64,000 bases of DNA from an uncultured virus (IMG/VR IMGVR_UViG_3300031088_000789) (Duplodnaviria > Heunggongvirae > Uroviricota > Caudoviricetes), in the IMG/VR virus record IMGVR_UViG_3300031088_000789; one strand, written 5' to 3'. The notes below the pieces were generated by a model, which saw only the letters and a list, made by a program, of their open reading frames with translations, was not told where the DNA came from and did no database searches. The position numbers and the translations under genes were made by a program. This document shows positions 1 to 58,616 of this stretch, in pieces; position 1 is the stretch's first letter, and each line of letters begins with the position of its first letter.

Positions 1-69
1 ACGAGCAACATCCAAGTTAGTTTCATGGATAGAAAATGTTCTTAATTTTTTCTTTTCTTTTTTGCTCAT
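1..69 (-). CDS. 5' part of the ORF after tnpA (MSKKEKKKLRTFSIHETNLDVAR...), probably TnpB or other cargo; partial
   Basis: Open frame from ATG at 69 to the window edge, at the position tnpB holds in copy 3. Confidence 0.55.
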   Translation of the reverse strand, partial: MSKKEKKKLRTFSIHETNLDVAR

Positions 70-118
70 AAATAATTACTCAATAATGCCATAATAATAA
101 ACAAAAAACTATTAAAAG

Positions 119-694
119 TCAAGTAATTATTGATTTTTTATTATGATGAGAACGCTTTCCATACAATTTAGCAGAAAAAACTGTCATAAGTTCAATAACA
201 TCTTCTGCTAAAGTCACTTCAAAAGATTTAGATTCGGAACTGTTAATTATGACAACATTTGTGCCAAATGTTGAGCATAATTTAAAGATTAAATCCGAAC
301 CAAATCTTAATAAACGTTCTTTGTGAGTAAGATAAAGGGTATGAATTTTACGAGAGATGATTAAAGAAAGAAGATGAATTAAACCTTTTTTATTAAAATT
401 TAATCCACTGCCAAGATCAGAAATGACAATCTTATTGTCATTTTGAATATATTGATCTAAGAATTTGATTTGGGTTTCTAAGTCTTTTTTTTGATCGTGA
501 GAAGAAACTCTGGCATAACCAACATGCAATTTATTAGAATTATGAAGTTTAAGCAAGTCATCGAAGAAGAATCTTCGATGATTGCCAAGGGTTCGAAAAG
601 AACTAATTTTACCAAGTCGTTCCCAACGACGAAGAGTAACAACAGAAAGGCCAAGAAAAGAAGCAAATTTACCAATAGAAAGAGATTTAATCAT
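119..694 (-). CDS. tnpA: IS607-family serine recombinase/transposase TnpA (intact)
   Basis: MerR-like HTH (TLRRWE...GNHRRF) plus resolvase motifs YARVSS..QK.DL..Q, SDLGSGLNF, ERLLRFG, FSAKLYGKRS. Confidence 0.95.
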   Translation of the reverse strand: MIKSLSIGKFASFLGLSVVTLRRWERLGKISSFRTLGNHRRFFFDDLLKLHNSNKLHVGYARVSSHDQKKDLETQIKFLDQYIQNDNKIVISDLGSGLNFNKKGLIHLLSLIISRKIHTLYLTHKERLLRFGSDLIFKLCSTFGTNVVIINSSESKSFEVTLAEDVIELMTVFSAKLYGKRSHHNKKSIIT

Positions 695-772
695 AAAAAA
701 AATAGAGGTTGAAACCTCTATTTTAACACAAATGATCAGATTTGATCAAGGAAATGAGCTGCAGTTAGAAAC

Positions 773-1465
773 CCTAAAAAAAATCATGTTGATATAATTA
801 TGGAAGCAAAAGAAGAATTGGGATATTATATAATACGATATCCAAATACCATATATAGTCAAAGAGCTATCAATGTTGCTATTGAAACAGGTCTTTATGA
901 TGCTGCTTACAAGGATCGTTTGAATACTGATACTAAGGCATATGAAAATATTAAAGCAAGATTTGATGTAATTGCAAAAAAAGTTGAACGCAATAACCAA
1001 GTTAAATGTGGCAGAGTTGAAAAAGATATTATAAAAAATCCAATGCCTGCAAACGCTTTAAGTTATCAGCATATACACTCAACCACTGCTGAATGGGATA
1101 CTGGATCTTATAAAGATTTAACATATAGATCAGCGAAAGATACAAGAGAAAATGATCATATCCCTGCAAAAGCTTTCGTTTTAAAATATTTATCCATGAG
1201 AGACAATAATGGTATAAATTATAGTGGTGATAAATTAAACAATATTGTAAATAACGCTTCAGCCGTTAATATTGAAAAAAAACTTCATAATGAAGGTCGA
1301 ACTATGCGAGATAAAGTTTTATATAAACTATATTATGCTGATTTATCTGCAGCAACAATTGAAGATCTTAGCTGGCATTATATTAATTCCGATTATAATC
1401 CTCAAGTTTTAGTTGCCATGGAGCAAGTTTACTTAAGAAATTACAGGTTGTGTTTGTACGAATAA
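773..1465 (+). pseudogene. C-terminal part of an IS-interrupted gene with a polymorphic-toxin-like His-rich nuclease domain
   Basis: Frame is open from the IS junction (PKKNHVDIIMEAKE...). GSYKDL...DHIP...ASAV.I...H..GRT resembles Rhs/CdiA-type C-terminal nuclease domains. Confidence 0.55.
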
Positions 1466-3447: not shown

Positions 3448-3516
3448 TGGCCGTTTCTTGTAAAAACTTTAAAAGCATGATAAAATCATGCTTTAATTCG
3501 GTCAAAGGTTACCATT

Positions 3517-3846
3517 ATGAGTGTTCATATTAAGCATTGGGAATGGGATTCACCTGAAGAATGCCTTAAATGGCTGTTTGAAAATCATCCTGATATGAAA
3601 CATTATAACAGCCTTCATTTGTGGCAAGAGTCCTTTGCAACACTGGGTGGTGGTTGTTTGGCGGGTAGTTACAATTGGATTAATCCGAAAAAACTTGAAA
3701 ACCGTCTGTATTCTGTTCGCTGGTGTGATGATGCAGTAGCTATCCGCTTCCATGATCAGATTTTTGCTGCCAAGGTGCCCAATCGCCGTTATCCTGATCA
3801 GGTTGGCTGCGTATTACTCAGGTTGCCAACACCAGAACCTGTTTGA
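3517..3846 (+). CDS. hypothetical protein
   Basis: ORF with RBS and upstream -10 box. Confidence 0.75.
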   Translation: MSVHIKHWEWDSPEECLKWLFENHPDMKHYNSLHLWQESFATLGGGCLAGSYNWINPKKLENRLYSVRWCDDAVAIRFHDQIFAAKVPNRRYPDQVGCVLLRLPTPEPV

Positions 3847-3966
3847 TTTTCCAATATAAGGTCTTGCATTGACCATCGTTTCTTGCTATAATAGTTTTAA
3901 CACGGCCACCATTAGAATTTATTTTACTTGGTGGTTTTTTATTTCTACTGCATAGGAAAAATTGTT

Positions 3967-4284
3967 ATGACTTCTCAAGTCGTTCTCGCAATCGGTCATT
4001 CTTGCCCTTCGAATAGCAACCTCGCTCAATATGCACCAGAAGCTGTAAGTGTATGGTACAACAAAGACACTGCTTTTGTTGGCATGGTCGTTAATAATGA
4101 TTTTTCCAGTGTTCTGGATATTTCGAAGCTCGATTTTGATGCCATCAAAGCTCAATTTGCTGATTATCGCACATTGGTTGCCAAAATCGCTGGTGATCAT
4201 GAATGGAAAAGTCTTGATGACCGCCATGATTGGTTTGAACTGTTCAACTCTGGTGAACCACAGATTGTTGTTATGGCAAAATAA
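3967..4284 (+). CDS. hypothetical protein
   Basis: AGGA RBS; terminator GAGGC-TTCG-GCCTC follows. Confidence 0.75.
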   Translation: MTSQVVLAIGHSCPSNSNLAQYAPEAVSVWYNKDTAFVGMVVNNDFSSVLDISKLDFDAIKAQFADYRTLVAKIAGDHEWKSLDDRHDWFELFNSGEPQIVVMAK

Positions 4285-4367
4285 CAAGTTAATTCATGAT
4301 GAAATAAAAGAGGCTTCGGCCTCTTTTTTATTTGACTTTTTAAATATTAATTATATTTTATATTCAT

Positions 4368-4760
4368 ATGATTGATTTAAATAAAATAAAAGAAAAAATC
4401 AATATATCATTTAATATTGATAAGTTAAGTTATTTACAAAACCTTGTTCCGGGTACAGTTCAAAGTGAAGATATACAGTTTAATATTGATGACTTTGAAT
4501 CAGAAACAGCAATAGATTTAATTTATAACGAAAGTCAAATTATAGAACACACAAAAAAACACAATATTCTTTGTGTTGATAATAATTTAGAAACATTATC
4601 CAATCATCATATTATTATAGCTGAAGATGTTGGTGGCTCTCCTATTATTTTAGATTTGCTTTCTGGCTGTGTTCTTTTGTTTTGGTTTGATTTTGATGGA
4701 AAGTTAGCCTTATTATTTGATGACTTAAAATCATTTTATGATGCTCTATTGATGGATTAA
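4368..4760 (+). CDS. SMI1/KNR4 (SUKH)-like protein
   Basis: IIIAEDVGGSPIILDL..G.V..F...DDLKSF matches the SUKH C-terminal pattern. Confidence 0.65.
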   Translation: MIDLNKIKEKINISFNIDKLSYLQNLVPGTVQSEDIQFNIDDFESETAIDLIYNESQIIEHTKKHNILCVDNNLETLSNHHIIIAEDVGGSPIILDLLSGCVLLFWFDFDGKLALLFDDLKSFYDALLMD

Positions 4761-4859
4761 AAATAGATTTCATCTATTTTTTGCAATATTTTCATTAAGT
4801 TATTGCTATTTCCCTTCTCTTTTGTTACGATTGATGGACTATTAGGAGATAGATAATAC

Positions 4860-6260
4860 ATGTCAAAACATAATTTTAATTTTTCAGATGTTGCTGTTGT
4901 TAAATCCATTCCAAACGCTACCGAAGTTGTTGTAAGCACTTACCAATCCTCAGAAGATGGCCCTATTGTCCATGAAAGCGTACCTGTTGAACTCCATCGC
5001 CTCTTAGATGACAAAACTGTAAGTGCCTATCATGGATCGACTTATTTTGTTTTGATTCATGTTAAAGCTGATGACAAGACTATTGCAAAACAAGTTGTCG
5101 CTGCAGTTGCTGCTCTACCAAAACACCTGCAAAAAGTTGCAGTACTTGCCGATGTTGGATGTCTGAAGAAATTTACAGCAGATGTACTGGTTGCTACGGC
5201 TCAACAATGGTCTGCAAAATCTGAACAAAAACCAAAAGAACCCAAGTCTATTTCATTGGTTTATACAGGTGAAAAATCCCTTGTTGAATTGACTGAACGT
5301 ATCGCACTTGGTCGAGCACTGGCTTTAGCTCAAGCAACCAAAATTCGTTTGATCGAAATGCCTTCAAACTATCTCACTCCATCTAATTTGCTTGAAGAAG
5401 CTAAAACCATCAGGAATTCTAGCCAAAAGGTCACGCTTTCCTATGTCAGTGGCAAAGACTTGGAAGAAGAAGGTTACGGCTCGCTTTACGCTGTTTCCAG
5501 AGGTTCTGTTGAAGAAGGTCATTTGATCACGCTTGAATACAACGGTGGCGAGAAAGGTGAAGCTCCTATTGTGCTGGTCGGCAAAGGTCTTACTTTCGAT
5601 TCTGGTGGTATTTCTATCAAGCCTTCCCGTGGCATGGGCCGCATGAAAGGTGACATGGGTGGTGCGGCTACTGTTCTTGCGTCCTTGATTTACGCGATTG
5701 AAACCGATGTGAAGAAAAACATTGTGGCTATCATTGCTACGTGTGAAAACATGCCAGACGCTGCAGCTCTGAAACCGGGTGATGTGATTACCGCCAAGAA
5801 TGGTAAAACTATCGAAGTGGAAGATACTGATGCCGAAGGCCGTTTGGTGTTGGCTGATGCACTTTGCCACGCTCAAACCTTTAACGGAGCAGTCACCATT
5901 GATTTTGCTACCCTCACAGGTGCTGTTATCTCAGCGATTGGTCATGTTCACACAGGTCTGTTTACAGAGTGCGATGAATGGGCCGAAACTATTCTTAAAG
6001 CGGGTAAAGCATCTGGTGATACTGCTTGGCGTTTGCCTTTGGGTGATGAATACAGTCATTTCCTTGAAAGTTCAGTTGCAGACATGAACAACCTCTGTTT
6101 GGGTCAAGGTGCAGGTGCTACCAATGGTGCCATCTTCTTGCGTGAGTTTGCTCCAAAAGAAAACTGGATTCACCTTGATATTGCAGGCACCAGTGATCAC
6201 AATGGTGGTACTGGGCGACCAGTTGGCTTGATGTCACATTTCCTTGACACTTACCGCTGA
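4860..6260 (+). CDS. pepA: M17 leucyl aminopeptidase
   Basis: LVGKGLTFDSGG, MKGDMGGAA, DTDAEGRLVLAD, ATLTGA and WIHLDIAGT motifs. Confidence 0.95.
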   Translation: MSKHNFNFSDVAVVKSIPNATEVVVSTYQSSEDGPIVHESVPVELHRLLDDKTVSAYHGSTYFVLIHVKADDKTIAKQVVAAVAALPKHLQKVAVLADVGCLKKFTADVLVATAQQWSAKSEQKPKEPKSISLVYTGEKSLVELTERIALGRALALAQATKIRLIEMPSNYLTPSNLLEEAKTIRNSSQKVTLSYVSGKDLEEEGYGSLYAVSRGSVEEGHLITLEYNGGEKGEAPIVLVGKGLTFDSGGISIKPSRGMGRMKGDMGGAATVLASLIYAIETDVKKNIVAIIATCENMPDAAALKPGDVITAKNGKTIEVEDTDAEGRLVLADALCHAQTFNGAVTIDFATLTGAVISAIGHVHTGLFTECDEWAETILKAGKASGDTAWRLPLGDEYSHFLESSVADMNNLCLGQGAGATNGAIFLREFAPKENWIHLDIAGTSDHNGGTGRPVGLMSHFLDTYR

Positions 6261-7425: not shown

Positions 7426-8010
7426 ATGTTCAAAAAAATAGCTACTTTTGTATTCTTTTGTATGTTCACCCTCCTTGCTGGCTGCTCTGGCACTCCGTTC
7501 TATGGTCCAATGACAGCTATTCATGATGATAAAACAGTAGATATTGGCTCCTATGTTCAATGGAACAATGAGTATGCTGTAACCGCTAAACATGTCAAAT
7601 ATGTGCCCAATATTGTCTATGTTTCGAAAGATTACGACCTCGTATTTTTTAAACATCCATCAACAGCCACTGTTCGATGGGCCGACACTCATGTAAATGA
7701 AAATCTTGTTTCAAAAGGATTTCCATTTTTTCCCAAACGCAATAAAGAATTATCTCTTGCTGGTCAAAGTGTAGATATTAATCTGACTATGGATAACCTT
7801 CCACACTATTATCTTATTGATGCTTTGCTCGTTGCAGGTATGTCTGGTGGCCCAGTATTGAATAGTCGAAATGAAGTTGTGGGCATTAATATTGGTTATA
7901 CTAAAAAGCTCTATAACATCAATAATAAAACTCAACACTACTCTGTTTATCTATCCCATCAGGGCATTCAAAAAGAGTGGATTAAGTTTCAAGAAATTAA
8001 CCAAGATTAA
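7426..8010 (+). CDS. trypsin-like serine protease lipoprotein
   Basis: Lipobox LAGC; triad motifs VTAKH, YDL, GMSGGPV. Confidence 0.85.
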   Translation: MFKKIATFVFFCMFTLLAGCSGTPFYGPMTAIHDDKTVDIGSYVQWNNEYAVTAKHVKYVPNIVYVSKDYDLVFFKHPSTATVRWADTHVNENLVSKGFPFFPKRNKELSLAGQSVDINLTMDNLPHYYLIDALLVAGMSGGPVLNSRNEVVGINIGYTKKLYNINNKTQHYSVYLSHQGIQKEWIKFQEINQD

Positions 8011-8082
8011 TTATTTCGTCGTTGACTATTTGCTTTGTATCAAATACGAAGTATACTTATTTTATTATTTTAGGAGCCAATA

Positions 8083-8358
8083 ATGTCAGATAAAAATAAT
8101 GCTTTGTTTACTGATTATTTAAGAAGACCGGGTGATAATCGTCCTGATCACGAACGATTTATTAATGTTAATCCTCCACCTACACAAGAACAAATTGATC
8201 ATCTTCGATCTATACAAATACCAAAGGCACCACCATCTGCACCTCATACAAAAACAGGAGCTACTTTTTCGAGTATCAAAACTATTATTTTGAATGATGA
8301 TAATTTGACTGCAGAGCAAAAATGTCGTTTGATTACTAATATTGGGTTGTTGTATTAA
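8083..8358 (+). CDS. hypothetical protein
   Basis: AGGAG RBS. Confidence 0.7.
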   Translation: MSDKNNALFTDYLRRPGDNRPDHERFINVNPPPTQEQIDHLRSIQIPKAPPSAPHTKTGATFSSIKTIILNDDNLTAEQKCRLITNIGLLY

Positions 8359-14573: not shown

Positions 14574-14693
14574 AGCCATCAATAAGACGAGAGAAATCTC
14601 TTCTTACTAGCGGCAAATGATGTTAACTATATTGAGTGTTATACATAGTTGCATCAAGGGTGTGAAAGAAATTTTGCACTTCGTCTGTTCCAC

Positions 14694-14766
14694 AAAGGTG
14701 TATATCAGTTGGTAGATAGTTTCCCTAACAGGGAAAAGGTCGCGGGTTCGAGTCCCGTCACTGATG
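14694..14766 (+). tRNA. tRNA-like gene, anticodon loop CTAACAG (AAC/Val), imperfect acceptor stem
   Basis: D arm TATC/GATA, anticodon stem TTTCC/GGAAA, T arm GCGGG-TTCGAGT-CCCGT; two acceptor mismatches; no CCA. Confidence 0.6.
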
Positions 14767-14794
14767 TGTATTTAGGCCAAAAGGTCAGGACAAT

Positions 14795-14868
14795 TACGGT
14801 GTATATCAGCGGCCTAGATAATCTCTCTAACAGAGAGAAGGACGCAGGTTCGAATCCTGCCATCGTAT
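14795..14868 (+). tRNA. tRNA with AAC anticodon (nominally Val)
   Basis: Full cloverleaf: TACGGTG/CATCGTA, TATC/GATA, TCTCT-CTAACAG-AGAGA, GCAGG-TTCGAAT-CCTGC; discriminator T; no encoded CCA. Confidence 0.8.
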
Positions 14869-24518: not shown

Positions 24519-24912
24519 GTAATGGTAAATCCATTAAAACAAATGACCTTCGGGTCAAAAATACAGTCTAACATTCTATTAGACAAACCATTTGAAATTT
24601 CAAATACACAAAGCCCAACATGTTTGGGCTTTTGTGTTTATTAATAAAAATATGTTACAAGGATTTTTGTATTTTTAAATAATTCCAGTGGTATATCATA
24701 AAACGGTTTTTTGCACTTTTTATTATATTTAAATTGGATGTTTTTAAAACGGTTTATTTTTAATACTTGGCACATATACTAAAACGGATTTATTACATCA
24801 AAAAACACTTAAAAAAGTGACATTTTAAGAGATAGGAGCAAAAAAATGCTTTACACTTTCTTGGATTTTTGCTATACTAGCCACACATAAACAGAAAGAA
24901 CGGAGAAACACC

Positions 24913-25053
24913 ATGACTCAAGTAGCACTGACCAAAGAACAAGAAATCGAACAGGCTTATGCTCAACTGAAAGCTCAGGAGCAGAAAGATAAAGATCTCG
25001 CATGGCAGAAGGCTGATAAAGAGCTGGGACATCAGCAAAAGTCTTCGGTTTAA
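24913..25053 (+). CDS. 46-aa peptide MTQVALTKEQEIEQAYAQLKAQE..., copy 1 of 3
   Basis: Own promoter (TTTACA..TATACT), CGGAG RBS, TTCG terminator; first 23 aa identical in all copies. Confidence 0.85.
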   Translation: MTQVALTKEQEIEQAYAQLKAQEQKDKDLAWQKADKELGHQQKSSV

Positions 25054-26632: not shown

Positions 26633-26702
26633 AATGCTTTACAAGAAACCCGTTTTTCGCTATACTAAACACACACAAACAACGATGTAACGGAGAAATA
26701 CC

Positions 26703-26837
26703 ATGACTCAAGTAGCACTGACCAAAGAGCAAGAAATCGAACAAGCCTACGCTCAACTGAAGGCTCAGGAAAAACAAGAACGTGATGCGGTGTGGGAACG
26801 TGCCGAAGCGGATCAGAGCAAAGGCAAAGACGAATAA
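26703..26837 (+). CDS. 44-aa peptide MTQVALTKEQ..., copy 2 of 3
   Basis: Same promoter, leader and terminator layout as copy 1. Confidence 0.85.
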   Translation: MTQVALTKEQEIEQAYAQLKAQEKQERDAVWERAEADQSKGKDE

Positions 26838-29404: not shown

Positions 29405-29483
29405 AATTGATTTAAAAATGCTTTACAGAAATTTCGATTTAAACTATACTACCTCACATAAACAGAAACAACGGAGAAACACC

Positions 29484-29618
29484 ATGACTCAAGTAGCATT
29501 GACCAAAGAACAAGAAATCGAACAAGCCTATGCTCAACTGAAAGCTCAGGAAAAACAAGAGCGTGATGCAGTATGGGAACGTGTCGAAGCTGATCAAAAC
29601 AAAGCAAGCGTTAGCTAA
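29484..29618 (+). CDS. 44-aa peptide MTQVALTKEQ..., copy 3 of 3
   Basis: Same promoter and leader cassette. Confidence 0.85.
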   Translation: MTQVALTKEQEIEQAYAQLKAQEKQERDAVWERVEADQNKASVS

Positions 29619-40266: not shown

Positions 40267-40490
40267 GATTTCAGGCACTTCTTCGAAAATCTATTGAGAA
40301 GTACATTTTCGAAGTGGTGGCGGAATTCCACCTCGTTGGCCGAGGACTATTGTGAAGGGAGTTGGGTATCGAATCCCAATGATATGTCATAGGGGCAATA
40401 ACCCTTATGTAACTCTAGTGAGACAAATGGCTCTGGCGACCCGCCAGTTAAACGCACCTGCGGAATCAGGTCGAGGGGTTCAAATTTTTA
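40267..40490 (+). ncRNA. highly structured RNA (long leader or ncRNA)
   Basis: TTTACA-17-TATACT promoter (40232-40260); at least 7 hairpins; no ORF until 40515. Confidence 0.6.
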
Positions 40491-50768: not shown

Positions 50769-50915
50769 ACAAACCCCCCTTAAAAATGGTTACGATTTTA
50801 GCACTTATTTTTTATAAAATCAATATTTTATTTTTTTTAATATTACTTGAATGCTATGCTCTTTTTTAGTATAATGCAGGTCTAATCGAAGTCATCTCAC
50901 ATAGGAGTAGTCATC

Positions 50916-50942
50916 ATGAAAGACGAACACGACGATCTGTAA
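50916..50942 (+). CDS. 8-aa micropeptide MKDEHDDL
   Basis: TTGAAT-17-TATAAT promoter, AGGAG RBS, terminator AAAGGTA-GCAA-TACCTTT at the stop. Confidence 0.5.
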   Translation: MKDEHDDL

Positions 50943-50997
50943 AGGTAGCAATACCTTTTTTTATTTTTTATAAATTTCTTTTTAACTATGGATATTC

Positions 50998-52016
50998 ATT
51001 ATTTCTCCTGAACAAGCTCAAAAACTGGCAAAAGATACCCATCTTCAAATTGAAAAACTTGAAGAAGGTCGCCTTCCTGTTATTGATGTTCTCGACATTT
51101 ATGCAGAAGATGGGTTTCTGATTGGCCCTGAGCAAATCCTGCAGGCATTTCAGGATTTTAAAACAGAGAATCTGCCGGTTCGTGTTGCCGAATTGAAAGA
51201 AAATATCATGAAAGCAATGGTCGAAATGAACAGTCTTGTCAACCAAGCTCAAATGGACGTAAAACTCAATAATGAGCGAATTGATTTGGCCGTAGGTGAT
51301 CTGAAATCTACCTTGTTTGATAACATTCGAAATGTTCCAGAAAGTCTGTTGACTCGCAAGATGCGTATTGGTAAAAAAATTATTGACGATGCGGATCTTC
51401 ATTTCTTGGAAGAAGCCTACAAAAATCTTGGATTTAAATATTGTGAAGTCAGTGTTCGAACTGATTATATTTACTTTGATCCAGAAGCAGGCGAAATTCG
51501 TCAACCGTTCCTGAAAGAGTTTCATCGCATTACTAACAACAAATACCGTTTTTAAAACAATGATCAAATCTGATCACTAACTATTCAACGGCAAAATAGA
51601 TATTACAAATAAGCTACTAGTCTGAGTACCAATTCTATACCTTCTAGAATACCTTCCTCGATTTTTACCTATTTATCTTTTTTGGAATAAAACAAGTAAA
51701 ACCATCACAATATACATAATAACTAGAACAGATTTTTTATCTATCTAGTAAATCACCTGTTGTTATTCGATTCGTCGCAATATCTTGTTTTATTCGCTGT
51801 CTATTTTCTTTTTAATTTAAACATCAATGGTTTAATATTAAATTAGACAAACTAATAATACATGATTAATATTTAAAGTCAAGTATTATTTTCATAAATG
51901 ATCAGATTTGATCAAGAAAATGAGACGCAGTTAAAAACCCATCACTTAGCAACTATGTTCAATGTGACAACTCTCGCATTGAAAACCCAGAGGTGTTGTG
52001 TATGTGGTTAGCTTGA
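50998..52016 (+). pseudogene. gene split by the mini-element; paralog of 53686..54315
   Basis: Removing the element and one ACC copy gives ...ITNNKYPSLSNYVQCDNSRIENPEVLCMWLA*. Shares YK.LGF, D...FDP and NY with 53686. Start codon appears to be ATT. Confidence 0.75.
51545..51939 (-). mobile_element. non-autonomous IS607-derived mini-element (ends, promoter, omegaRNA-like region; no ORF)
   Basis: Both ends match the 55317-57966 element; ACC core on both sides; interior is homologous to the tnpB 3' end. Confidence 0.85.
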
Positions 52017-52123
52017 ATCAGTAACAACCTTCACAAAAGGAGCTTTGGCTCCTTTTTCCTTGCATCTTTATCTAAAAAGCTTTATAATGAGGCTTCTTTC
52101 TACTAATACATTTGGAGTTTTTC

Positions 52124-52645
52124 ATGAGCAAAATCATTAAGGCAACATTGACTATTGAAGGCAAAAACATCAGTGTTGATGAACTGAATGATCTGTTTTC
52201 GGGAGCGGCGGCCAAAATCAAAGGTTTGAGTTTTTTGATTAATGATCAAGCCTACAATGCGAGCAATCTCAAAAAATATCTTTTCACTGCTGTTAAAGGC
52301 ACAAAGTCATCAGCTATTGAAGTGGATGAAATCGACCTTCCAAATGCACTTCCAAAGATTGTGAAACTGGCTGCAAAAGTCGGAAACAAACTTGACCAAG
52401 TAGCTTATCAGGAATCGTTCCCAATTTTCTGTGATGAACTTGTTCGTGGTGAAGATGTTCATGTTTGCACTCGTTTCTTGGGGATGAATCTCTTTGTTAC
52501 CCGCTTGGAAGATAAAACAGGCAATCAAAAAGAACGCTCCAATAAGGCATGGATGGAAAGCTTCATTGATAAAAACCTCAAAAAAGACCGTAAAGGGCTG
52601 TCGCTGGACGTAAGTGCGGCTTTCTTGTCTAAACAACCTGATTAA
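52124..52645 (+). CDS. hypothetical protein
   Basis: GGAG RBS; TTGCAT..TATAAT promoter. Confidence 0.75.
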   Translation: MSKIIKATLTIEGKNISVDELNDLFSGAAAKIKGLSFLINDQAYNASNLKKYLFTAVKGTKSSAIEVDEIDLPNALPKIVKLAAKVGNKLDQVAYQESFPIFCDELVRGEDVHVCTRFLGMNLFVTRLEDKTGNQKERSNKAWMESFIDKNLKKDRKGLSLDVSAAFLSKQPD

Positions 52646-52719
52646 TGGGTTGATTCATTTTTCAAAAAGCTTTATAATAAAGGAGATCTTCGGATCTCTT
52701 TTTTTTTTGGAATTTTATT

Positions 52720-53184
52720 ATGAACTTATTACTTCGTCATCGTTGCTTTGAATTCGACACAGAAGGCACTATTGTATATGACCCTGATCGTGGTTCAATG
52801 AAAAACAATATTGAGCATTGGGCTGTCATTACAGTTGATGCAGATATTGCAGCCTACTATCGCCATTTGTTTTATAAGCAATATGGTGTTGCATTGGATA
52901 AGCCTAACTGGGATGTTCACTGCTCTGTTTTGAAAGGCTATAGCATGATGGATAAGGATAAACCTTGGGGCTGGCGTGATAATGAACACGTTCAAGTCAA
53001 TTATACTCATGAAATGTTTTGGAATACGACTCATGTTTGGGTGAATTGCTATTCACAAGCCTTTTTTGAAATTCGAGATTTTTATAACATTGTTGGACAA
53101 GATCAAGGACATATCACCATTGGCAAGTTTAAACATAATCAGCAAGGTTGTATAAAACCGTTTAAAAATTACAATCCTGATTGA
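52720..53184 (+). CDS. 2H phosphoesterase-like protein
   Basis: HxS and HxT motifs (VHCSV, GHITIG). Confidence 0.6.
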   Translation: MNLLLRHRCFEFDTEGTIVYDPDRGSMKNNIEHWAVITVDADIAAYYRHLFYKQYGVALDKPNWDVHCSVLKGYSMMDKDKPWGWRDNEHVQVNYTHEMFWNTTHVWVNCYSQAFFEIRDFYNIVGQDQGHITIGKFKHNQQGCIKPFKNYNPD

Positions 53185-53231
53185 TTTCAATCGTCTTTTT
53201 TGCTATAATTCAAGCCTAATTGGAGTATTTT

Positions 53232-53606
53232 ATGATTAAACAACTTGAAAATGTGGTTCCTGACGAAATTTCAGAAGAATATCTGTCAGCAAAATCTATT
53301 TTTCTGGCCGTTGCACTGTGGCGTACTTTTGGTGGTGTTATTCAAGTGCGATTGGTAGATGACCTTTCCGTAAAATCTATTGATCATGCTTGGCTCTCGG
53401 TTGATGGTCATGATATTGATATCGATGGCTCTTATCCACCTATTGCACCCTTGGATGAAAGTGAAAACGATTTGTATGTTGGCATGGATGAAGAAAAAAC
53501 CCTTGAATTAGTCCGCTCTATTATTGATGTGAGTGATAAAGATTGGGAAAAGGAAGTTAAAAAAGCTCTCAAAATCGTCAAAAAATATTATTTCAGAGAT
53601 GAATAA
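53232..53606 (+). CDS. hypothetical protein related to 48639
   Basis: FLAVAL...HAW...DIDG. Confidence 0.7.
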   Translation: MIKQLENVVPDEISEEYLSAKSIFLAVALWRTFGGVIQVRLVDDLSVKSIDHAWLSVDGHDIDIDGSYPPIAPLDESENDLYVGMDEEKTLELVRSIIDVSDKDWEKEVKKALKIVKKYYFRDE

Positions 53607-53685
53607 TCTTTTTTTTGAAAAAAAATGTTGTGCCCGATGACCGTTTTTGCTATACTTGCCTCATCTAATCAATAAGGTTATTGTT

Positions 53686-54315
53686 ATGAATGATTCCGCT
53701 CTGAAAGCCATTGAAAAAAACAAGAGTGAGATCGCTCAGATTCAAAAAAAATCTGTGGCCGTCCCAGAAGCACTCAGCCTCTACTGCGAAGATGGCATGT
53801 CTTATAGTGTCAGCGACATTATTGATGAACTGAAACGACATTCGACTGTTGGCCTGACTTCGTTTGCAAAAGAGCAATTGGCCATTGCATTGGCGGCTTT
53901 GACCACTTACAACGATGAAGTCACTGCTCTTCAAAATGAAGCCATTGAAGCAAACAATGCTGTGGCTGAAAAGGTTAAGAAGAAACGTGAAGAATTGGAT
54001 GTTCTTCTCAACGATGTTCCTGAAAAGAAATTTACCAAAGTTGTGCGAATTAGCAAAAGCAAACTTTCCCCAGAAGTTCGTGAAGATCTGGTAAAAGTTT
54101 ACAAAAAACTTGGTTTCACTCATGTTGGTGCGGTCGAGTGGCGTGATTTTGTCTTCTTTGATCCTGCTGTGACTGATGGAAAAGAGCTTCGTAATCTTAT
54201 TGCAACTACTTTTGAAGACATTCATCCTGACAAATCGTTCTTGACCATCCGTAACTACATCATGGTAGAAAATAACACTGCTGACCTTGAAACTGTCATC
54301 AAATCCCTTGTATAA
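53686..54315 (+). CDS. hypothetical protein, paralog of the split gene at 50998
   Basis: Y.EDG, VP...., YKKLGF, DFVFFDP motifs. Confidence 0.8.
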   Translation: MNDSALKAIEKNKSEIAQIQKKSVAVPEALSLYCEDGMSYSVSDIIDELKRHSTVGLTSFAKEQLAIALAALTTYNDEVTALQNEAIEANNAVAEKVKKKREELDVLLNDVPEKKFTKVVRISKSKLSPEVREDLVKVYKKLGFTHVGAVEWRDFVFFDPAVTDGKELRNLIATTFEDIHPDKSFLTIRNYIMVENNTADLETVIKSLV

Positions 54316-54454
54316 TGATGACTCAACGGGGCTGAAAGGCCCCTTGCTTCAAATGTTGTAAATCGCAAGTGCTAAGTAGCAGAAAACAAGAACAAAGCCT
54401 GCCTATTGAATACGACGATACTGCCGATATTTATTCTCAGACAGGAGATTCACG

Positions 54455-54613
54455 ATGCTTAAAACTAAACGTATGCTGTTGCTATTCCTTGCTTTGGGCT
54501 TTACAGGTGGTGGTGATCATAGCCAGCATCATGATCGTTCGCCTTCGCAATCAAAAGTCCGTCGCTGGTCGGTTCTTCAACACAAAAGTAAACATGCCCA
54601 TATTCAACGTTAA
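54455..54613 (+). CDS. 52-aa His-rich peptide with hydrophobic N-terminus
   Basis: CAGGAG RBS; read by hand. Confidence 0.5.
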   Translation: MLKTKRMLLLFLALGFTGGGDHSQHHDRSPSQSKVRRWSVLQHKSKHAHIQR

Positions 54614-54745
54614 ATTTCATATTTTTTGTTGAATCAAGACTCAATCTTTGGTATAATTATCCCATCGAAGCAACAAGGGGCGAGCATTCAAATAAGCCTT
54701 TCCCCTTGTAAATGCTGAATCGACTCTCTTGAAACAGAAAAGGAT

Positions 54746-55090
54746 ATGACCATGAAAATGATGAAAATTGTTCTCGCTGCTATCACTCTGGCTCTGATGA
54801 CTGGTTGCGTGTCTGCTGGTCAATATGGTTCTTACCAAGCACGTCAAATTGAGCGTAAATGCATGATCAACGCAGATAAGCAAGCTCAAAACGCCTATAT
54901 CCGTAAAGAAAGTGATGTTCGCTTTGCAGAGTCTTACAAGAAGGCTCAAAAGGCTCAGCAAACGTTCCAAAAACGCATTGCAAGCATTCAAGAAAGCCGT
55001 GACCGCTGCATTGCAAGCGGCCAGCGTAAAGTCTTTGAAGAACAGCTTCGTCGCACTACCAACCGTATGTATAACCGCACCTACTACTGA
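54746..55090 (+). CDS. lipoprotein
   Basis: Lipobox MTGC; terminator follows. Confidence 0.75.
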   Translation: MTMKMMKIVLAAITLALMTGCVSAGQYGSYQARQIERKCMINADKQAQNAYIRKESDVRFAESYKKAQKAQQTFQKRIASIQESRDRCIASGQRKVFEEQLRRTTNRMYNRTYY

Positions 55091-55395
55091 TAGTTGCTGA
55101 CTAACGAACCCGCCGAGTGCGGGTTTTTTGTTTATTTAATTCTAGATTTATGGTATAATTTAGAAAATTTGGAGAGGTCTTATCATGAGTTATCATACTG
55201 CTGCACCTTATGATTCCAAAATTCCAGATGCCTATAAACTGATTTTTGAAGACAATGGTTATATGGTTTATGAATGGAGTGGTCGCCTGTTCCTGTATCG
55301 TAAAGGCAAATCGTTGGGTTTTTAACTGCGTCTCATTTTCTTGATTAAATCTGATCATTTATGTTAGAATAGAGGTGTCAACATCTATTTTTTAT

Positions 55396-55937
55396 ATGAT
55401 TAAATCTCTTTCTGTTGTTACTCTTCGTCGTTGGGAAAAATTTGGTAAAATTAGTTCTTTTCGAACTCTTGGCAATCATCGAAGATTTTTCTTCGATGAC
55501 TTGCTTAAACTTCATAATTCTAATAAATTGTATGTTGGTTATGCCAGAGTTTCTTCTCACGATCAAAAAAATACTTAGAAACCCAAATCAAATTCTTAGA
55601 TAAATATATTCAAAATGACAATAAAATGGTCATTTCTGATCTTGGCAGTGGATTAAATTTTAATAAAAAAGGTTTAATTCTTCTTCTTTCTTTAATTGTT
55701 TCTCGTAAAATTCATACCCTTTATCTCACTCACAAAGAACGTTTATTAAGATTTGGTTCGGATTTAATCCTTAAATTATGCTCAACATTTGGCACAAATG
55801 TTGTCATAATTAACAGTTCCGAATCTAAATCTTTTGAAGTGACTTTAGCAGAAGACGTTATTGAACTTATGACTGTCTTTTCGGCTAAATTGTAGGGTAA
55901 ACGTTCTCATCATAACAAAAAATCAATAACTACTTGA
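55396..55937 (+). pseudogene. tnpA: inactivated IS607 tnpA
   Basis: Near-identical to 119..694 but with a 33-bp HTH deletion between CTTTCT repeats, a frameshift near 55570 and TAT>TAG at 55893. Confidence 0.9.
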
Positions 55938-55962
55938 CTTTTAATAGTTTTTTATTTATTAT
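55934..55962 (+). promoter_or_regulatory. internal tnpB promoter
   Basis: TTGACT-17-TATTAT; also present in copy 1 and, with a 16-nt spacer, in the mini-element. Confidence 0.55.
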
Positions 55963-55990
55963 TGTGGCATTATTGAGTATTTATTTATCC

Positions 55991-57919
55991 ATGAAAAAGA
56001 AATCCAACATCAAAGAGTTGTTTGGTACTACATTAGATGATGATGTAGCATTGAACAACACCATCACTGTTCAGGCAAAGTTCAAACTTTGTCCTGAGCA
56101 GGATGTGATCTTGAACAAAATCATGGAACATCTTACTTACGCTAAACTCATGTACTTTAACTATCTCGTTTATTCAACTAAAATGAATAAATTCATGAAA
56201 GATAATGCTCTTTATATTACTAAAGAGATAAAAGTGAAAGATGAATTAACAGGTTTAACATTATCACAAAGCGTTACAACCCTTGAAACTTTTAAAGTGG
56301 CTTTTTGTCGTGTCTATGGTCTATCATCTCGCCAATTCAATTCTATTGATTTTCTCATTAAAGGTCTTATTAAGGCTAATAAGACTTTAATGCAAGATAG
56401 ATTAATTAACTTTAACGATCAACTTGATAGAAAATTAGCCAAACAGAAAAAACTTGTGGGTGAGATTCATCTTTTATCCATAAGTGATGCTTTTAAGACT
56501 AAGAAAAATAGTGCTCTTTCTAGTCATAATAAAAAGAAAATAGCTTTAATTAAGTTAAAAGAAGAAATTGAAAGAAAACAAGCCGCTATTGTTCGGTTAG
56601 AACATAACATTAAAACAAACAAAGTATCTGTTTGTTTTGGTGATCGAAAAATATTGAATCGGCTTTCTTCTTTATTCAATGATAGCAATTATGATCATGG
56701 AAAATACAAACATATTAGTAATGAAGCTCGAAAAAGCTATCATACTGCATACAGAAAGCTCTGGCATGATTCTCGGTTTAATCAATTTTTCTTATTGGGT
56801 TCAAAAGATGAAAACAATGGTAATGCTTCTTGTGTGTTTTCAAAACAGAGTGAAAGCCTTTATTCTGTTAAGATTTCAATTCCACAATGTGTTAGAGATG
56901 AACTTGGTTTATCTCAAAAGCATTTGGTGATTGACAATATTAATTTTAAACACAATGAAAAAGAAATCTTAAACAGTTTTGCTTTAAATGAACAAAGAAA
57001 ACAAAAAGAAAGTGAGTACACTCAAAAACTAAAAGACAAAGATCCATCATTATTTGATGATAAAGGTGAAGCAATAAGTAAAGCGACTTACTTAGAAGAT
57101 GAAGGTGTTGCTATTTCTTTTAGATTTATAAAAGACACTTTTGCCGATCCAAAAAGACTTTCAAGCTCTTGGAGAATTCTTACTTCAATGGATGAAACCA
57201 AACATCAGAAAGCTATTATGTCAAAAGCAACAGGTGTTATTGCTATTGATACTAATGTCGATCATTTTGCTGTTGCTGAATTGAATGGTCAAAGAAACCT
57301 AAAGAAAGCTTTCAACGTGTATTTTGGTTTCACTGATAGTGAACAGAATTCAAATAAAACGCTTCGTAAAGAAGCAATATTGAAATCAGCTAAAAAGATT
57401 ATTAACTATGCAATAGAGACTAAAAAACCTATTGTAATCGAACGTTTAGATTTCAAAAATAAACGAGCAGCATTAAAAGAAGAAAATACATTATTTGGTG
57501 ATGCTGCCAAAAAGAAAAACCGTATACTGTCATCATTTGCATACTCATTGATGATAGAGACAATAAAAACTCTGGCCTATCGTAACGGTATAGCCGTTTA
57601 CGAAGTCAATCCAGCTTTTACGTCTCAAATAGGTTGGTTAAAGTATGCTAAACAATATGGTATATCACGGCATATGGCAGCAGCTTATGTGATCGGAAGA
57701 AGAACCTATGCCATAGAAGAATTGTTTGACCGGAATGAACAAGTTATTGTAAAAAGCCAAATAAGAACAGTCCCTTTACTAGTAGATAGAGAAGATTGTA
57801 AAACTTATTTTGAGTACTGCAGTAAAAACTTGCGAAATTTCCTAAAAAGACAGGTTCATGAAAGCCGAGGAAAGTTGGACAGTACTCAGGTTAGTAGTGA
57901 ATCGGTAATAGCTATTTAG
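55991..57919 (+). CDS. tnpB: large (642 aa) TnpB-related RNA-guided nuclease
   Basis: RuvC-I IAIDTN, RuvC-II IVIERLDF, VNPAFTSQIG..KY...SRHMAAAYVIGRR; follows tnpA. Confidence 0.85.
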   Translation: MKKKSNIKELFGTTLDDDVALNNTITVQAKFKLCPEQDVILNKIMEHLTYAKLMYFNYLVYSTKMNKFMKDNALYITKEIKVKDELTGLTLSQSVTTLETFKVAFCRVYGLSSRQFNSIDFLIKGLIKANKTLMQDRLINFNDQLDRKLAKQKKLVGEIHLLSISDAFKTKKNSALSSHNKKKIALIKLKEEIERKQAAIVRLEHNIKTNKVSVCFGDRKILNRLSSLFNDSNYDHGKYKHISNEARKSYHTAYRKLWHDSRFNQFFLLGSKDENNGNASCVFSKQSESLYSVKISIPQCVRDELGLSQKHLVIDNINFKHNEKEILNSFALNEQRKQKESEYTQKLKDKDPSLFDDKGEAISKATYLEDEGVAISFRFIKDTFADPKRLSSSWRILTSMDETKHQKAIMSKATGVIAIDTNVDHFAVAELNGQRNLKKAFNVYFGFTDSEQNSNKTLRKEAILKSAKKIINYAIETKKPIVIERLDFKNKRAALKEENTLFGDAAKKKNRILSSFAYSLMIETIKTLAYRNGIAVYEVNPAFTSQIGWLKYAKQYGISRHMAAAYVIGRRTYAIEELFDRNEQVIVKSQIRTVPLLVDREDCKTYFEYCSKNLRNFLKRQVHESRGKLDSTQVSSESVIAI

Positions 57920-57986
57920 CCGTTGAATAGTTAGTGATCAGATTTGATCATTTTTCAAAAAGCGGTCAACTGATTAATGGTTTTAC
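57700..57986 (+). ncRNA. predicted omegaRNA (tnpB 3' end, right end, flank-derived guide); 5' end approximate
   Basis: Region conserved in the mini-element; terminal hairpin CCG-TTGAA...TGATCA-GATT-TGATCA...TTCAA..CGG. Confidence 0.55.
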
Positions 57987-58208
57987 TGGACTCAAAAAGA
58001 ATTATCGTAATAGCTTCGAAGTTTGGATTTATAAAATCAAACAAAAAGATATGGCAAAAATTAAAAACATCGAAGCGGATATCAAGCAGATGCAACAAGA
58101 TTGTGATCTGATTCGTGATGTTCATTCTTGATCATTTTTAAGTTTTTCTTGTCATTGTTTGATTATTTTGCTATAATTCAGGCAGATATTGACTAGAAGG
58201 CTAAAACA

Positions 58209-58616
58209 ATGCTTACAGTTAAAGACATCCTCAGCAATTATCCAGTAAAGATTGAATATAACGAACACAATATTATTCGTGCGAATCTTGCATTGGATTA
58301 CTTGTGGGAAGAACGTTGTAAAGAACGTGGTTTTGTTTATGCTGGTGAGCGGTCTGGTAGCTGTAAGTTTGCAGCCTTGTTGGCACGGAATCTTTTTGGT
58401 GGCCGTCTTGCGGGTAATCACGAGCATGTCTTTGTTATCAGTGGCTCTAATTTGATTGACCTCAACATTGATCAAAAAGATGTTATTGATCTACATCAAG
58501 CTCATTTGCGTATGGACACTGTATTGACTCATCGTGATTATCGTGATGCTTTAACATCTTGCTTGCCACGGGTTGATAAATGGGAGCAATGGGTGCTTAA
58601 TAGGGCAAAGAAATAA
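58209..58616 (+). CDS. phage hypothetical protein (GSCKFA.L...FGG...GN..H.F...IDL)
   Basis: TGCTATAAT promoter; Cys/His/Asp motif. Confidence 0.7.
   Translation: MLTVKDILSNYPVKIEYNEHNIIRANLALDYLWEERCKERGFVYAGERSGSCKFAALLARNLFGGRLAGNHEHVFVISGSNLIDLNIDQKDVIDLHQAHLRMDTVLTHRDYRDALTSCLPRVDKWEQWVLNRAKK

Follow-up and report, generated by a model that had tools for sequence, protein, structure and literature searches.

Does a stretch of DNA that has both ends of an insertion sequence but codes for nothing merely ride along with its relatives, or does it have a product of its own? The question is raised by a minus-strand segment of about 394 bp in the window, by which we mean the whole stretch of DNA analysed here, 64,000 nucleotides from an uncultured virus of the Caudoviricetes (IMG/VR record IMGVR_UViG_3300031088_000789). 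The first-pass annotation of this DNA had described the segment as a protein-free IS607 mini-element, consisting of a left end, a tnpB-type promoter and a stretch homologous to the last part of tnpB and to the right end, and had inferred that it expresses its own omegaRNA. The features so described are all present to within 1 base, and alignments to full-length relatives confirm this anatomy. On the evidence set out below, we think it reasonably likely that the mini-element is a functional free-standing omegaRNA that is mobilised and that uses TnpA and TnpB in trans.

On the minus strand, the mini-element starts at T/GGGTTTTTAACTG, with GGG at 51940-51938, and finishes at AAAAACGG/T, with CGG at 51548-51546 (slashes mark the joints). 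These boundaries rest on three observations: similarity to a second copy on another contig stops there, contigs assembled from sequencing runs have loose ends at 51543 and 51545, and orthologues of the gene that the element interrupts show where the inserted DNA lies. Coordinates of the mini-element, of its relatives in the window and of the interrupted gene are collected in Table 1.

Table 1. Positions in the window of the mini-element, its full-length relatives and the gene it interrupts.
Feature	Position	Strand	Remarks
Whole mini-element	51546..51940	minus	about 394 bp, one of two GG cores counted
Left end of mini-element	51893..51940	minus	TGATCA-N4-TGATCA motif inside, at 51899-51914
Promoter-like site TTGACT-16-TATTAT	51855..51882	minus	homologous to the promoter before tnpB
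Leader of mini-element	51800..51854	minus	remnant of tnpB 5' UTR and start codon (alignment of tnpB upstream regions, sequence reading)
OmegaRNA-like scaffold	51546..51799	minus	254 nt, three domains, finishes at right-end CGG
Presumed guide	51526..51545	minus	20 nt of flank directly 3' of right end, antisense to interrupted gene; inferred from position
5' part of interrupted gene	51007..51555	plus	now ends ..NNKY-RF and a stop codon within the mini-element's right end
Severed 3' tail of interrupted gene, PSLSNYVQCDNSRIENPEVL..	51939..52016	plus	matches C-terminal tail of 8 aligned orthologues
Element A	55316..57965	plus	left end, tnpA pseudogene, tnpB promoter, tnpB-like gene, own scaffold
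Element A tnpA pseudogene	55398-55934	plus	11-codon loss and frameshift
Element A tnpB-like gene	55991-57919	plus	intact, 642 aa
Element A scaffold	57728-57965	plus	covariance model, 265 bits
Copy B	1..774	minus	left end, intact tnpA, tnpB-type promoter, 23 codons of downstream gene leaving the window
Copy B left end	727-774	minus	
Copy B tnpA, intact	119-694	minus	NF033518 (IS607 transposase), 4.9e-50, above cut-off

Both ends of the mini-element belong to the same family as the longer copies nearby. Its left end (47 nt) is 97.9% identical to 55317-55363, the left end of element A, and aligns over 55 columns at 87% identity to that of copy B (773-719), which bears tnpA, while the right end is 85% identical to that of element A over the last 85 nt. 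The motif TGATCAGATTTGATCA is present in all five element ends of the window and has nine matches on the two strands together, against 0.18 expected (0/100 shuffles). Inward of the left end lies the promoter-like site, which at 10/12 is the top such site within 50900-52300. This AT-rich region holds 5 promoter-like sites versus 5.1 in shuffles, which is no excess; both hexamers of the site in question are identical in all eight aligned elements (seven full copies and the mini-element), with a spacer that varies. The tnpB start remnant in the leader forms an ORF of 7 codons, and homology to the tnpB 3' end and right end takes up the last 254 nt of the element. As the first-pass annotation had stated, there is no ORF in the element, in that none of at least 20 aa lies on its own strand; neither an effector nor a transposase gene is found inside it, and its opposite strand has just two ORFs, one of 28 aa and one of 37 aa, the latter exiting through the left end. 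From an element made up of two ends, the tnpB promoter and the tnpB 3' region, with no ORF, we read a history in which two deletions took out tnpA and nearly all of tnpB and spared the ends, promoter and 3' region. An ATG in the left end, facing outward (MIRF(D/N)QENETQLKT..), starts ORFs that run into the flank at 51898-52011 (+) and 55101-55358 (-), and the ORF opened by the mini-element is out of frame with the interrupted gene.

The mini-element is an insertion inside a plus-strand gene, which it splits exactly at a TGGG site, and target duplication is absent. Homologues of this gene are 209-213 aa long in 46 of 48 cases. The eight that we aligned as orthologues run unbroken through the joint as ..NKY/PSLSNYVQCDNS.. 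(over a longer stretch, ..NKY-PSLSNYVQCDNSRIE.. without interruption), and in the window the two halves flank the mini-element. When the tail of a paralogue (53686-54315) served to compare the possible joints, the frame of the GGG joint alone continued the gene (shuffle p 0.005, versus 0.46 and 0.84 for the other two frames), and the empty site is therefore T-GGG-T, with no duplication of the target. The same joint is required by the orthologues, which read ..KY/PSLS.. across it, so that the empty-site string proposed earlier stands. The severed tail ends ..VLCMWLA and a stop at 51999-52016 (+), where orthologues have ..VLMYVVSLNQ; because the frame changes near the tail end, this suggests decay after insertion.

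Evidence that the element moves comes from copies in other surroundings. A second copy occupies positions 7857-8253 of a 112-kb metagenome contig, L031, where its flanks are unrelated to those in the window. Similarity between the two breaks off exactly at both ends, the copies being identical through CGG-T and unrelated beyond. They differ at 10 mismatches in 395 nt, all confined to the left end's outer 36 nt, and the remaining 358 nt are identical. Between L031:7859-7895 and window 51940-51905 the differences consist of 10 substitutions, and in L031 this stretch is similar to the left end of L033, a complete relative; because of this resemblance, the sequences suggest that ends have been exchanged between family members. 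Contigs from three RNA-library runs, belonging to three studies, cover only 51543-51919 and none of the window flanks, and at 51543 and 51545 two run contigs continue into other sequence, which adds two further flanks. In run X10 the window flanks are present at 100% and no contig covers the interior of the mini-element, a gap that says nothing about another occupant of the site. The RNA-library data are assembled contigs, which carry no strand, ends or expression level, and they may represent DNA carry-over or read-through, since some of them also span the promoter and left end. The mini-element is thus mobile and present in more than one genomic context, and it is almost certainly a mobile non-autonomous derivative of IS607. 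Searches by blastn with the mini-element and element A against a phage collection gave no match, and neither did a search of IMG/VR with the right-end pattern.

The full-length relatives allow the element to be placed within its family. Over 54-491, copy B is 94% identical to element A (55565-56002), and it may be complete, as a tnpB promoter and 23 downstream codons precede the edge of the window. L033 is a complete relative with both tnpA and tnpB intact. Left junctions read T/GGG in five of six cases, copy B having A/GGG, and right ends finish (A/G)CGG, followed by T at seven of the eight loci; ..CGG is found at all eight right ends read (seven intact ends and a degenerate one in L031). It had been suggested that the window holds one TnpA/TnpB/omegaRNA system split over three loci, in which no copy is visibly autonomous. 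Both parts of this suggestion lack support, because element A carries TnpB together with its own scaffold and copy B continues past the window edge, where it may be complete, and a complete relative exists in L033. The idea of a three-locus split is accordingly weak, and the elements make up an ordinary IS family, in which some members are full-length and others decayed or miniature.

Several further details of these relatives were observed. The tnpA genes of element A (55560-55580) and of L030 (3076-3106) are frameshifted near the same point, at TnpA residues 69-78, the break in element A falling within a run of A's. Element A itself lies at the 3' end of a small plus-strand ORF (55185-55325) whose stop is in the left end (GGT TTT TAA), and both element ends provide a stop within 3 codons. 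On L031, a tnpB homologue at 3474-5451, 61% identical, has neither tnpA nor a left end, and its right end is without TGATCA-N4-TGATCA; because these parts are missing, it looks immobilised. The L031 copy of the mini-element lies 2.4 kb downstream of this homologue.

If the last part of the mini-element serves as RNA, its fold should be that of the full-length copies, and the absence of such a conserved fold was one of the grounds that the first-pass annotation had named for giving up its proposal. We aligned the last 235-242 nt of seven full copies, leaving the mini-element out, and obtained with RNAalifold a structure of 68 pairs in 9 helices. Across the seven copies 95.1% of cells are paired versus 88.3% in shuffles, and 19 pairs are changed on both sides versus 8.9 in shuffles (0/500 shuffles as high in either case); with slid partners, only 34-44% are paired. 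One helix illustrates the pattern across four lineages, in which it is formed by CAGGUUCA with UGAAUCGG, CUAUUGAA with UUUAAUAG, CUAGUAAG with CUUACUAG, and CUAAUGG with CCAUUAG. The strand that carries the fold is the tnpB-sense one, as invariant G-U pairs show. At the right end the closing helix has a competitor in another hairpin (CUAUUU..GAAUAG), which is favoured by one double change in L033.

A covariance model built from the seven full copies only matches the mini-element at 51799-51546 (-) with 140.8 bits (E 4.7e-40), over its full length (model positions 1-241) and ending at CGG, compared with 106.8 bits for a sequence-only model. It also finds the L031 copy of the mini-element, and nothing else among the 36 sources searched. 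Although the mini-element is only 65-72% identical to any full copy, it keeps 64 of the 68 pairs, whereas random placement of its substitutions leaves 41.6-45.4 pairs (sd about 3, at most 55 across 2000 trials), and 13 of the kept pairs use pair types found in no full copy. For these counts the alignment was fitted to the model; MAFFT/RNAalifold, run independently, gave the same helices. One long-range stem has turned into a perfect 12-bp helix in the mini-element, and a variable loop has gained an extra hairpin. Divergent contigs of the mini type from one run lend the fold no clear support: they show three wobble-to-Watson-Crick changes and three broken pairs, plus one possible double change that counts only if two separate contigs represent one variant. 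Rfam gave no relevant match in 51300-58300 at E up to 1 (for example, to RAGATH-18 of IS607 TnpB), nor in the whole window at the gathering score. The mini-element has conserved the RNA fold seen in the right ends of full-length copies, and on this point the earlier proposal came through.

This conservation bears directly on the simplest alternative, in which the element is a MITE-like passenger whose ends alone matter, for TnpA, and whose inner fold is an undecayed relic of its parent with no RNA function. Mini-IS constructs without both genes are excised by IS607 TnpA in trans (PMC10690162), so nothing internal is needed for movement, and the RNA-library contigs do not establish expression. 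We nevertheless regard a mere passenger as unlikely: a body that has diverged by 28-35% from all full copies would be expected to hold on to 42-45 pairs, far fewer than are found, 13 of its pairs are of new types, and two separate deletions left exactly the promoter and the scaffold. A second alternative takes the promoter as the functional part, with transcription out of the right end acting antisense to the interrupted gene or driving neighbouring genes, and the structure serving RNA stability and not TnpB. The conserved promoter does point outward, the transcript in the window would be antisense to 51007-51555, and no terminator-like site is found for about 470 nt 3' of the right end. Flanks vary between copies of the mini-element, however, so there is no common regulated target, and the homology of the structured part to the tnpB 3' end region of every full copy extends to each helix; a mobile promoter or antisense module therefore seems to us improbable. 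That the pairing reflects DNA structure or protein-binding sites of the recombinase, as the palindromic TGATCA-N4-TGATCA hairpin in both ends might suggest, is highly improbable, given that IS607 TnpA works on double-stranded ends (PMC6188088), that the helices extend 254 nt inward and that the invariant G-U pairs are valid on one strand only.

A free-standing guide RNA would need a protein partner, and element A provides a candidate of the relevant type. Its 642-aa TnpB-like protein matches TIGR01766 above cut-off and NF040570 below cut-off (1.2e-11), and a Pfam search with it gave no match. A big protein set yielded 19 matches, 18 of which were aligned with it. In all 19 rows D420, E484 and H561 are invariant, and the His (H561) occupies the position expected of the RuvC-III Asp; a S-R/K/I-H-M-A/S-A-A-Y-V-I motif is likewise found in the window protein and its 18 homologues. 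No zinc finger is present, there being no Cys pairs between the TSQ motif and H561 in these rows. The predicted fold (pLDDT 75.5) is nearest to Cas12k, Cas12f and Cas12m, of which Cas12k and Cas12m are naturally nuclease-poor. A sequence search of the PDB with the TnpB profile gave only one weak match, to Cas12m (E 0.0076), and a scan of IMG/VR for TnpB relatives found none. Among TnpBs, the major clade RIIIr-4 is described as having the RuvC-III Asp replaced by His, no C4 zinc finger, and an over-representation in viruses (PMC10691335). The window protein and its 18 homologues share this His and the missing zinc finger, and by these motifs, which are the sole basis of the placement, the protein appears to bear the RIIIr-4 signature. 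Our literature search found no biochemical work on this clade.

Having lost both genes and kept two ends, a promoter and the folded part of a guide RNA, the mini-element probably depends on enzymes from its full-length relatives; it retains exactly what movement and a guide RNA require, and nothing else. In the free-standing omegaRNA reading that we favour, a serine-recombinase TnpA supplied from elsewhere would move the element between TGGG sites by way of the GG core. The promoter would then drive an RNA of about 300 nt, whose scaffold would end in ..ACGG and which would run on into the flank, to be used as the guide. Since TnpB is known to derive its omegaRNA from the mRNA that encodes it (PMC10278001), joining a tnpB promoter to the scaffold makes sense as a means of expression once the gene is gone. 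A TnpB-like protein from a full copy would bind this RNA and act on the uninterrupted allele, in which TGGG is followed by a match to the guide, and retention or spread of the insertion would thereby be favoured. Transcription, binding by TnpB, DNA cleavage and the identity of the partner TnpB are the parts of this scheme that we infer. The scaffold does not pinpoint a cognate TnpB, as all the full copies recovered lie at much the same distance from it (65-72% identity), and its use by the TnpB of the window is our assumption. The stretch of about 470 nt without a terminator-like site also counts against this reading, as do the His and the missing zinc finger of the TnpB-like protein, which may or may not be a nuclease.

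The general idea of free-standing, mobilised omegaRNAs that are used in trans is already published (PMC10691335, PMC10055086), and three known systems are close enough for comparison. The free-standing mobilised omegaRNAs of OMEGA systems work in trans (Altae-Tran 2021, as summarised in PMC10691335) and resemble the mini-element in combining a scaffold with transposon ends, in having no effector or transposase gene, and in the presence of effector-encoding copies in the same genomes. As summarised there, however, they are loci of the IS200/IS605 type, whereas the mini-element has the ends of IS607, a serine-recombinase element, with a conserved promoter of its own, and belongs with a His-variant TnpB. 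Protein-free, PATE-like IS605 elements of Geobacillus stearothermophilus "often encode omegaRNAs" (Meers 2023, PMC10055086), and like the mini-element they are minimal and gene-free, with omegaRNAs that need TnpB in trans and with mobilisation by TnpA in trans. In that account they rely on a Y1 (HUH) transposase, single-stranded hairpin ends and a TAM of the TTGAT type, in contrast to the GG core, TGGG site and double-strand serine recombinase that apply to the mini-element. The third system is CboIStron, an IS607-family IStron of Clostridium botulinum with a TGGG target/TAM, a GG core and a scaffold ending in ..UCGG (PMC10690162). It shares with the mini-element a serine TnpA, the GG core, a TGGG target that equals the TAM, a scaffold ending in NCGG, a guide taken from the flank and the lack of target duplication. 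It differs in encoding both proteins plus a group I intron, and its gene-free version is, in the account given there, a laboratory construct only, whereas the mini-element is natural and has spread. No natural gene-free IS607 omegaRNA element was found in our literature search, which covered part of the field.

The surrounding window contributes some observations of its own. About 160 nt at 40325-40488 are 76-81% identical to unannotated stretches of Klebsiella and Serratia phages of about 300 kb and of Pseudomonas phages (19 records); this segment, which has no match in Rfam, possibly specifies a non-coding RNA conserved among large phages. At 14693-14868 there is a tandem pair of tRNA-Val(AAC) genes. 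A family of 150-nt direct repeats, 71-87% identical, occupies 24884-25033, 26674-26823 and 29455-29604, each copy adjoining a TTTACA..TATACT promoter-like repeat. Of the ORFs scanned, 22 of 25 have no family in Pfam and 19 of 20 none in PHROG. One of the window's own proteins has been recorded from a 677,834-bp contig, and the replicon looks like a very large phage-like genome.

On the reading we favour, the mini-element is a naturally occurring omegaRNA of the IS607 type that moves about separately from its nuclease. For the His-variant, zinc-finger-less clade of TnpB it supplies an empty site known to the base (TGGG plus target), together with a defined promoter and a fold supported by covariation, and it thereby makes several questions testable: whether this clade is RNA-guided and whether it is a nuclease, whether guides can be shared between diverged TnpB lineages, and whether guide-only elements have an advantage in transmission. 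More speculatively, and with the balance of our judgement against it, the element might be a guide-RNA-only hyperparasite of the IS607/TnpB family in very large phage-like genomes, one that encodes nothing, would jump by means of a borrowed TnpA and, during co-infection, would use a borrowed His-variant TnpB for homing into alleles that are still uninterrupted; the identical 358-nt body would thereby have spread, even into coding sequence, between genomes whose TnpB proteins are only 61% identical. Were this true, L031, whose nearby TnpB stands without transposase, left end or right-end motif, may already pair a stationary effector with mobile guides, which would be a step towards a CRISPR-like split between effector and guide.
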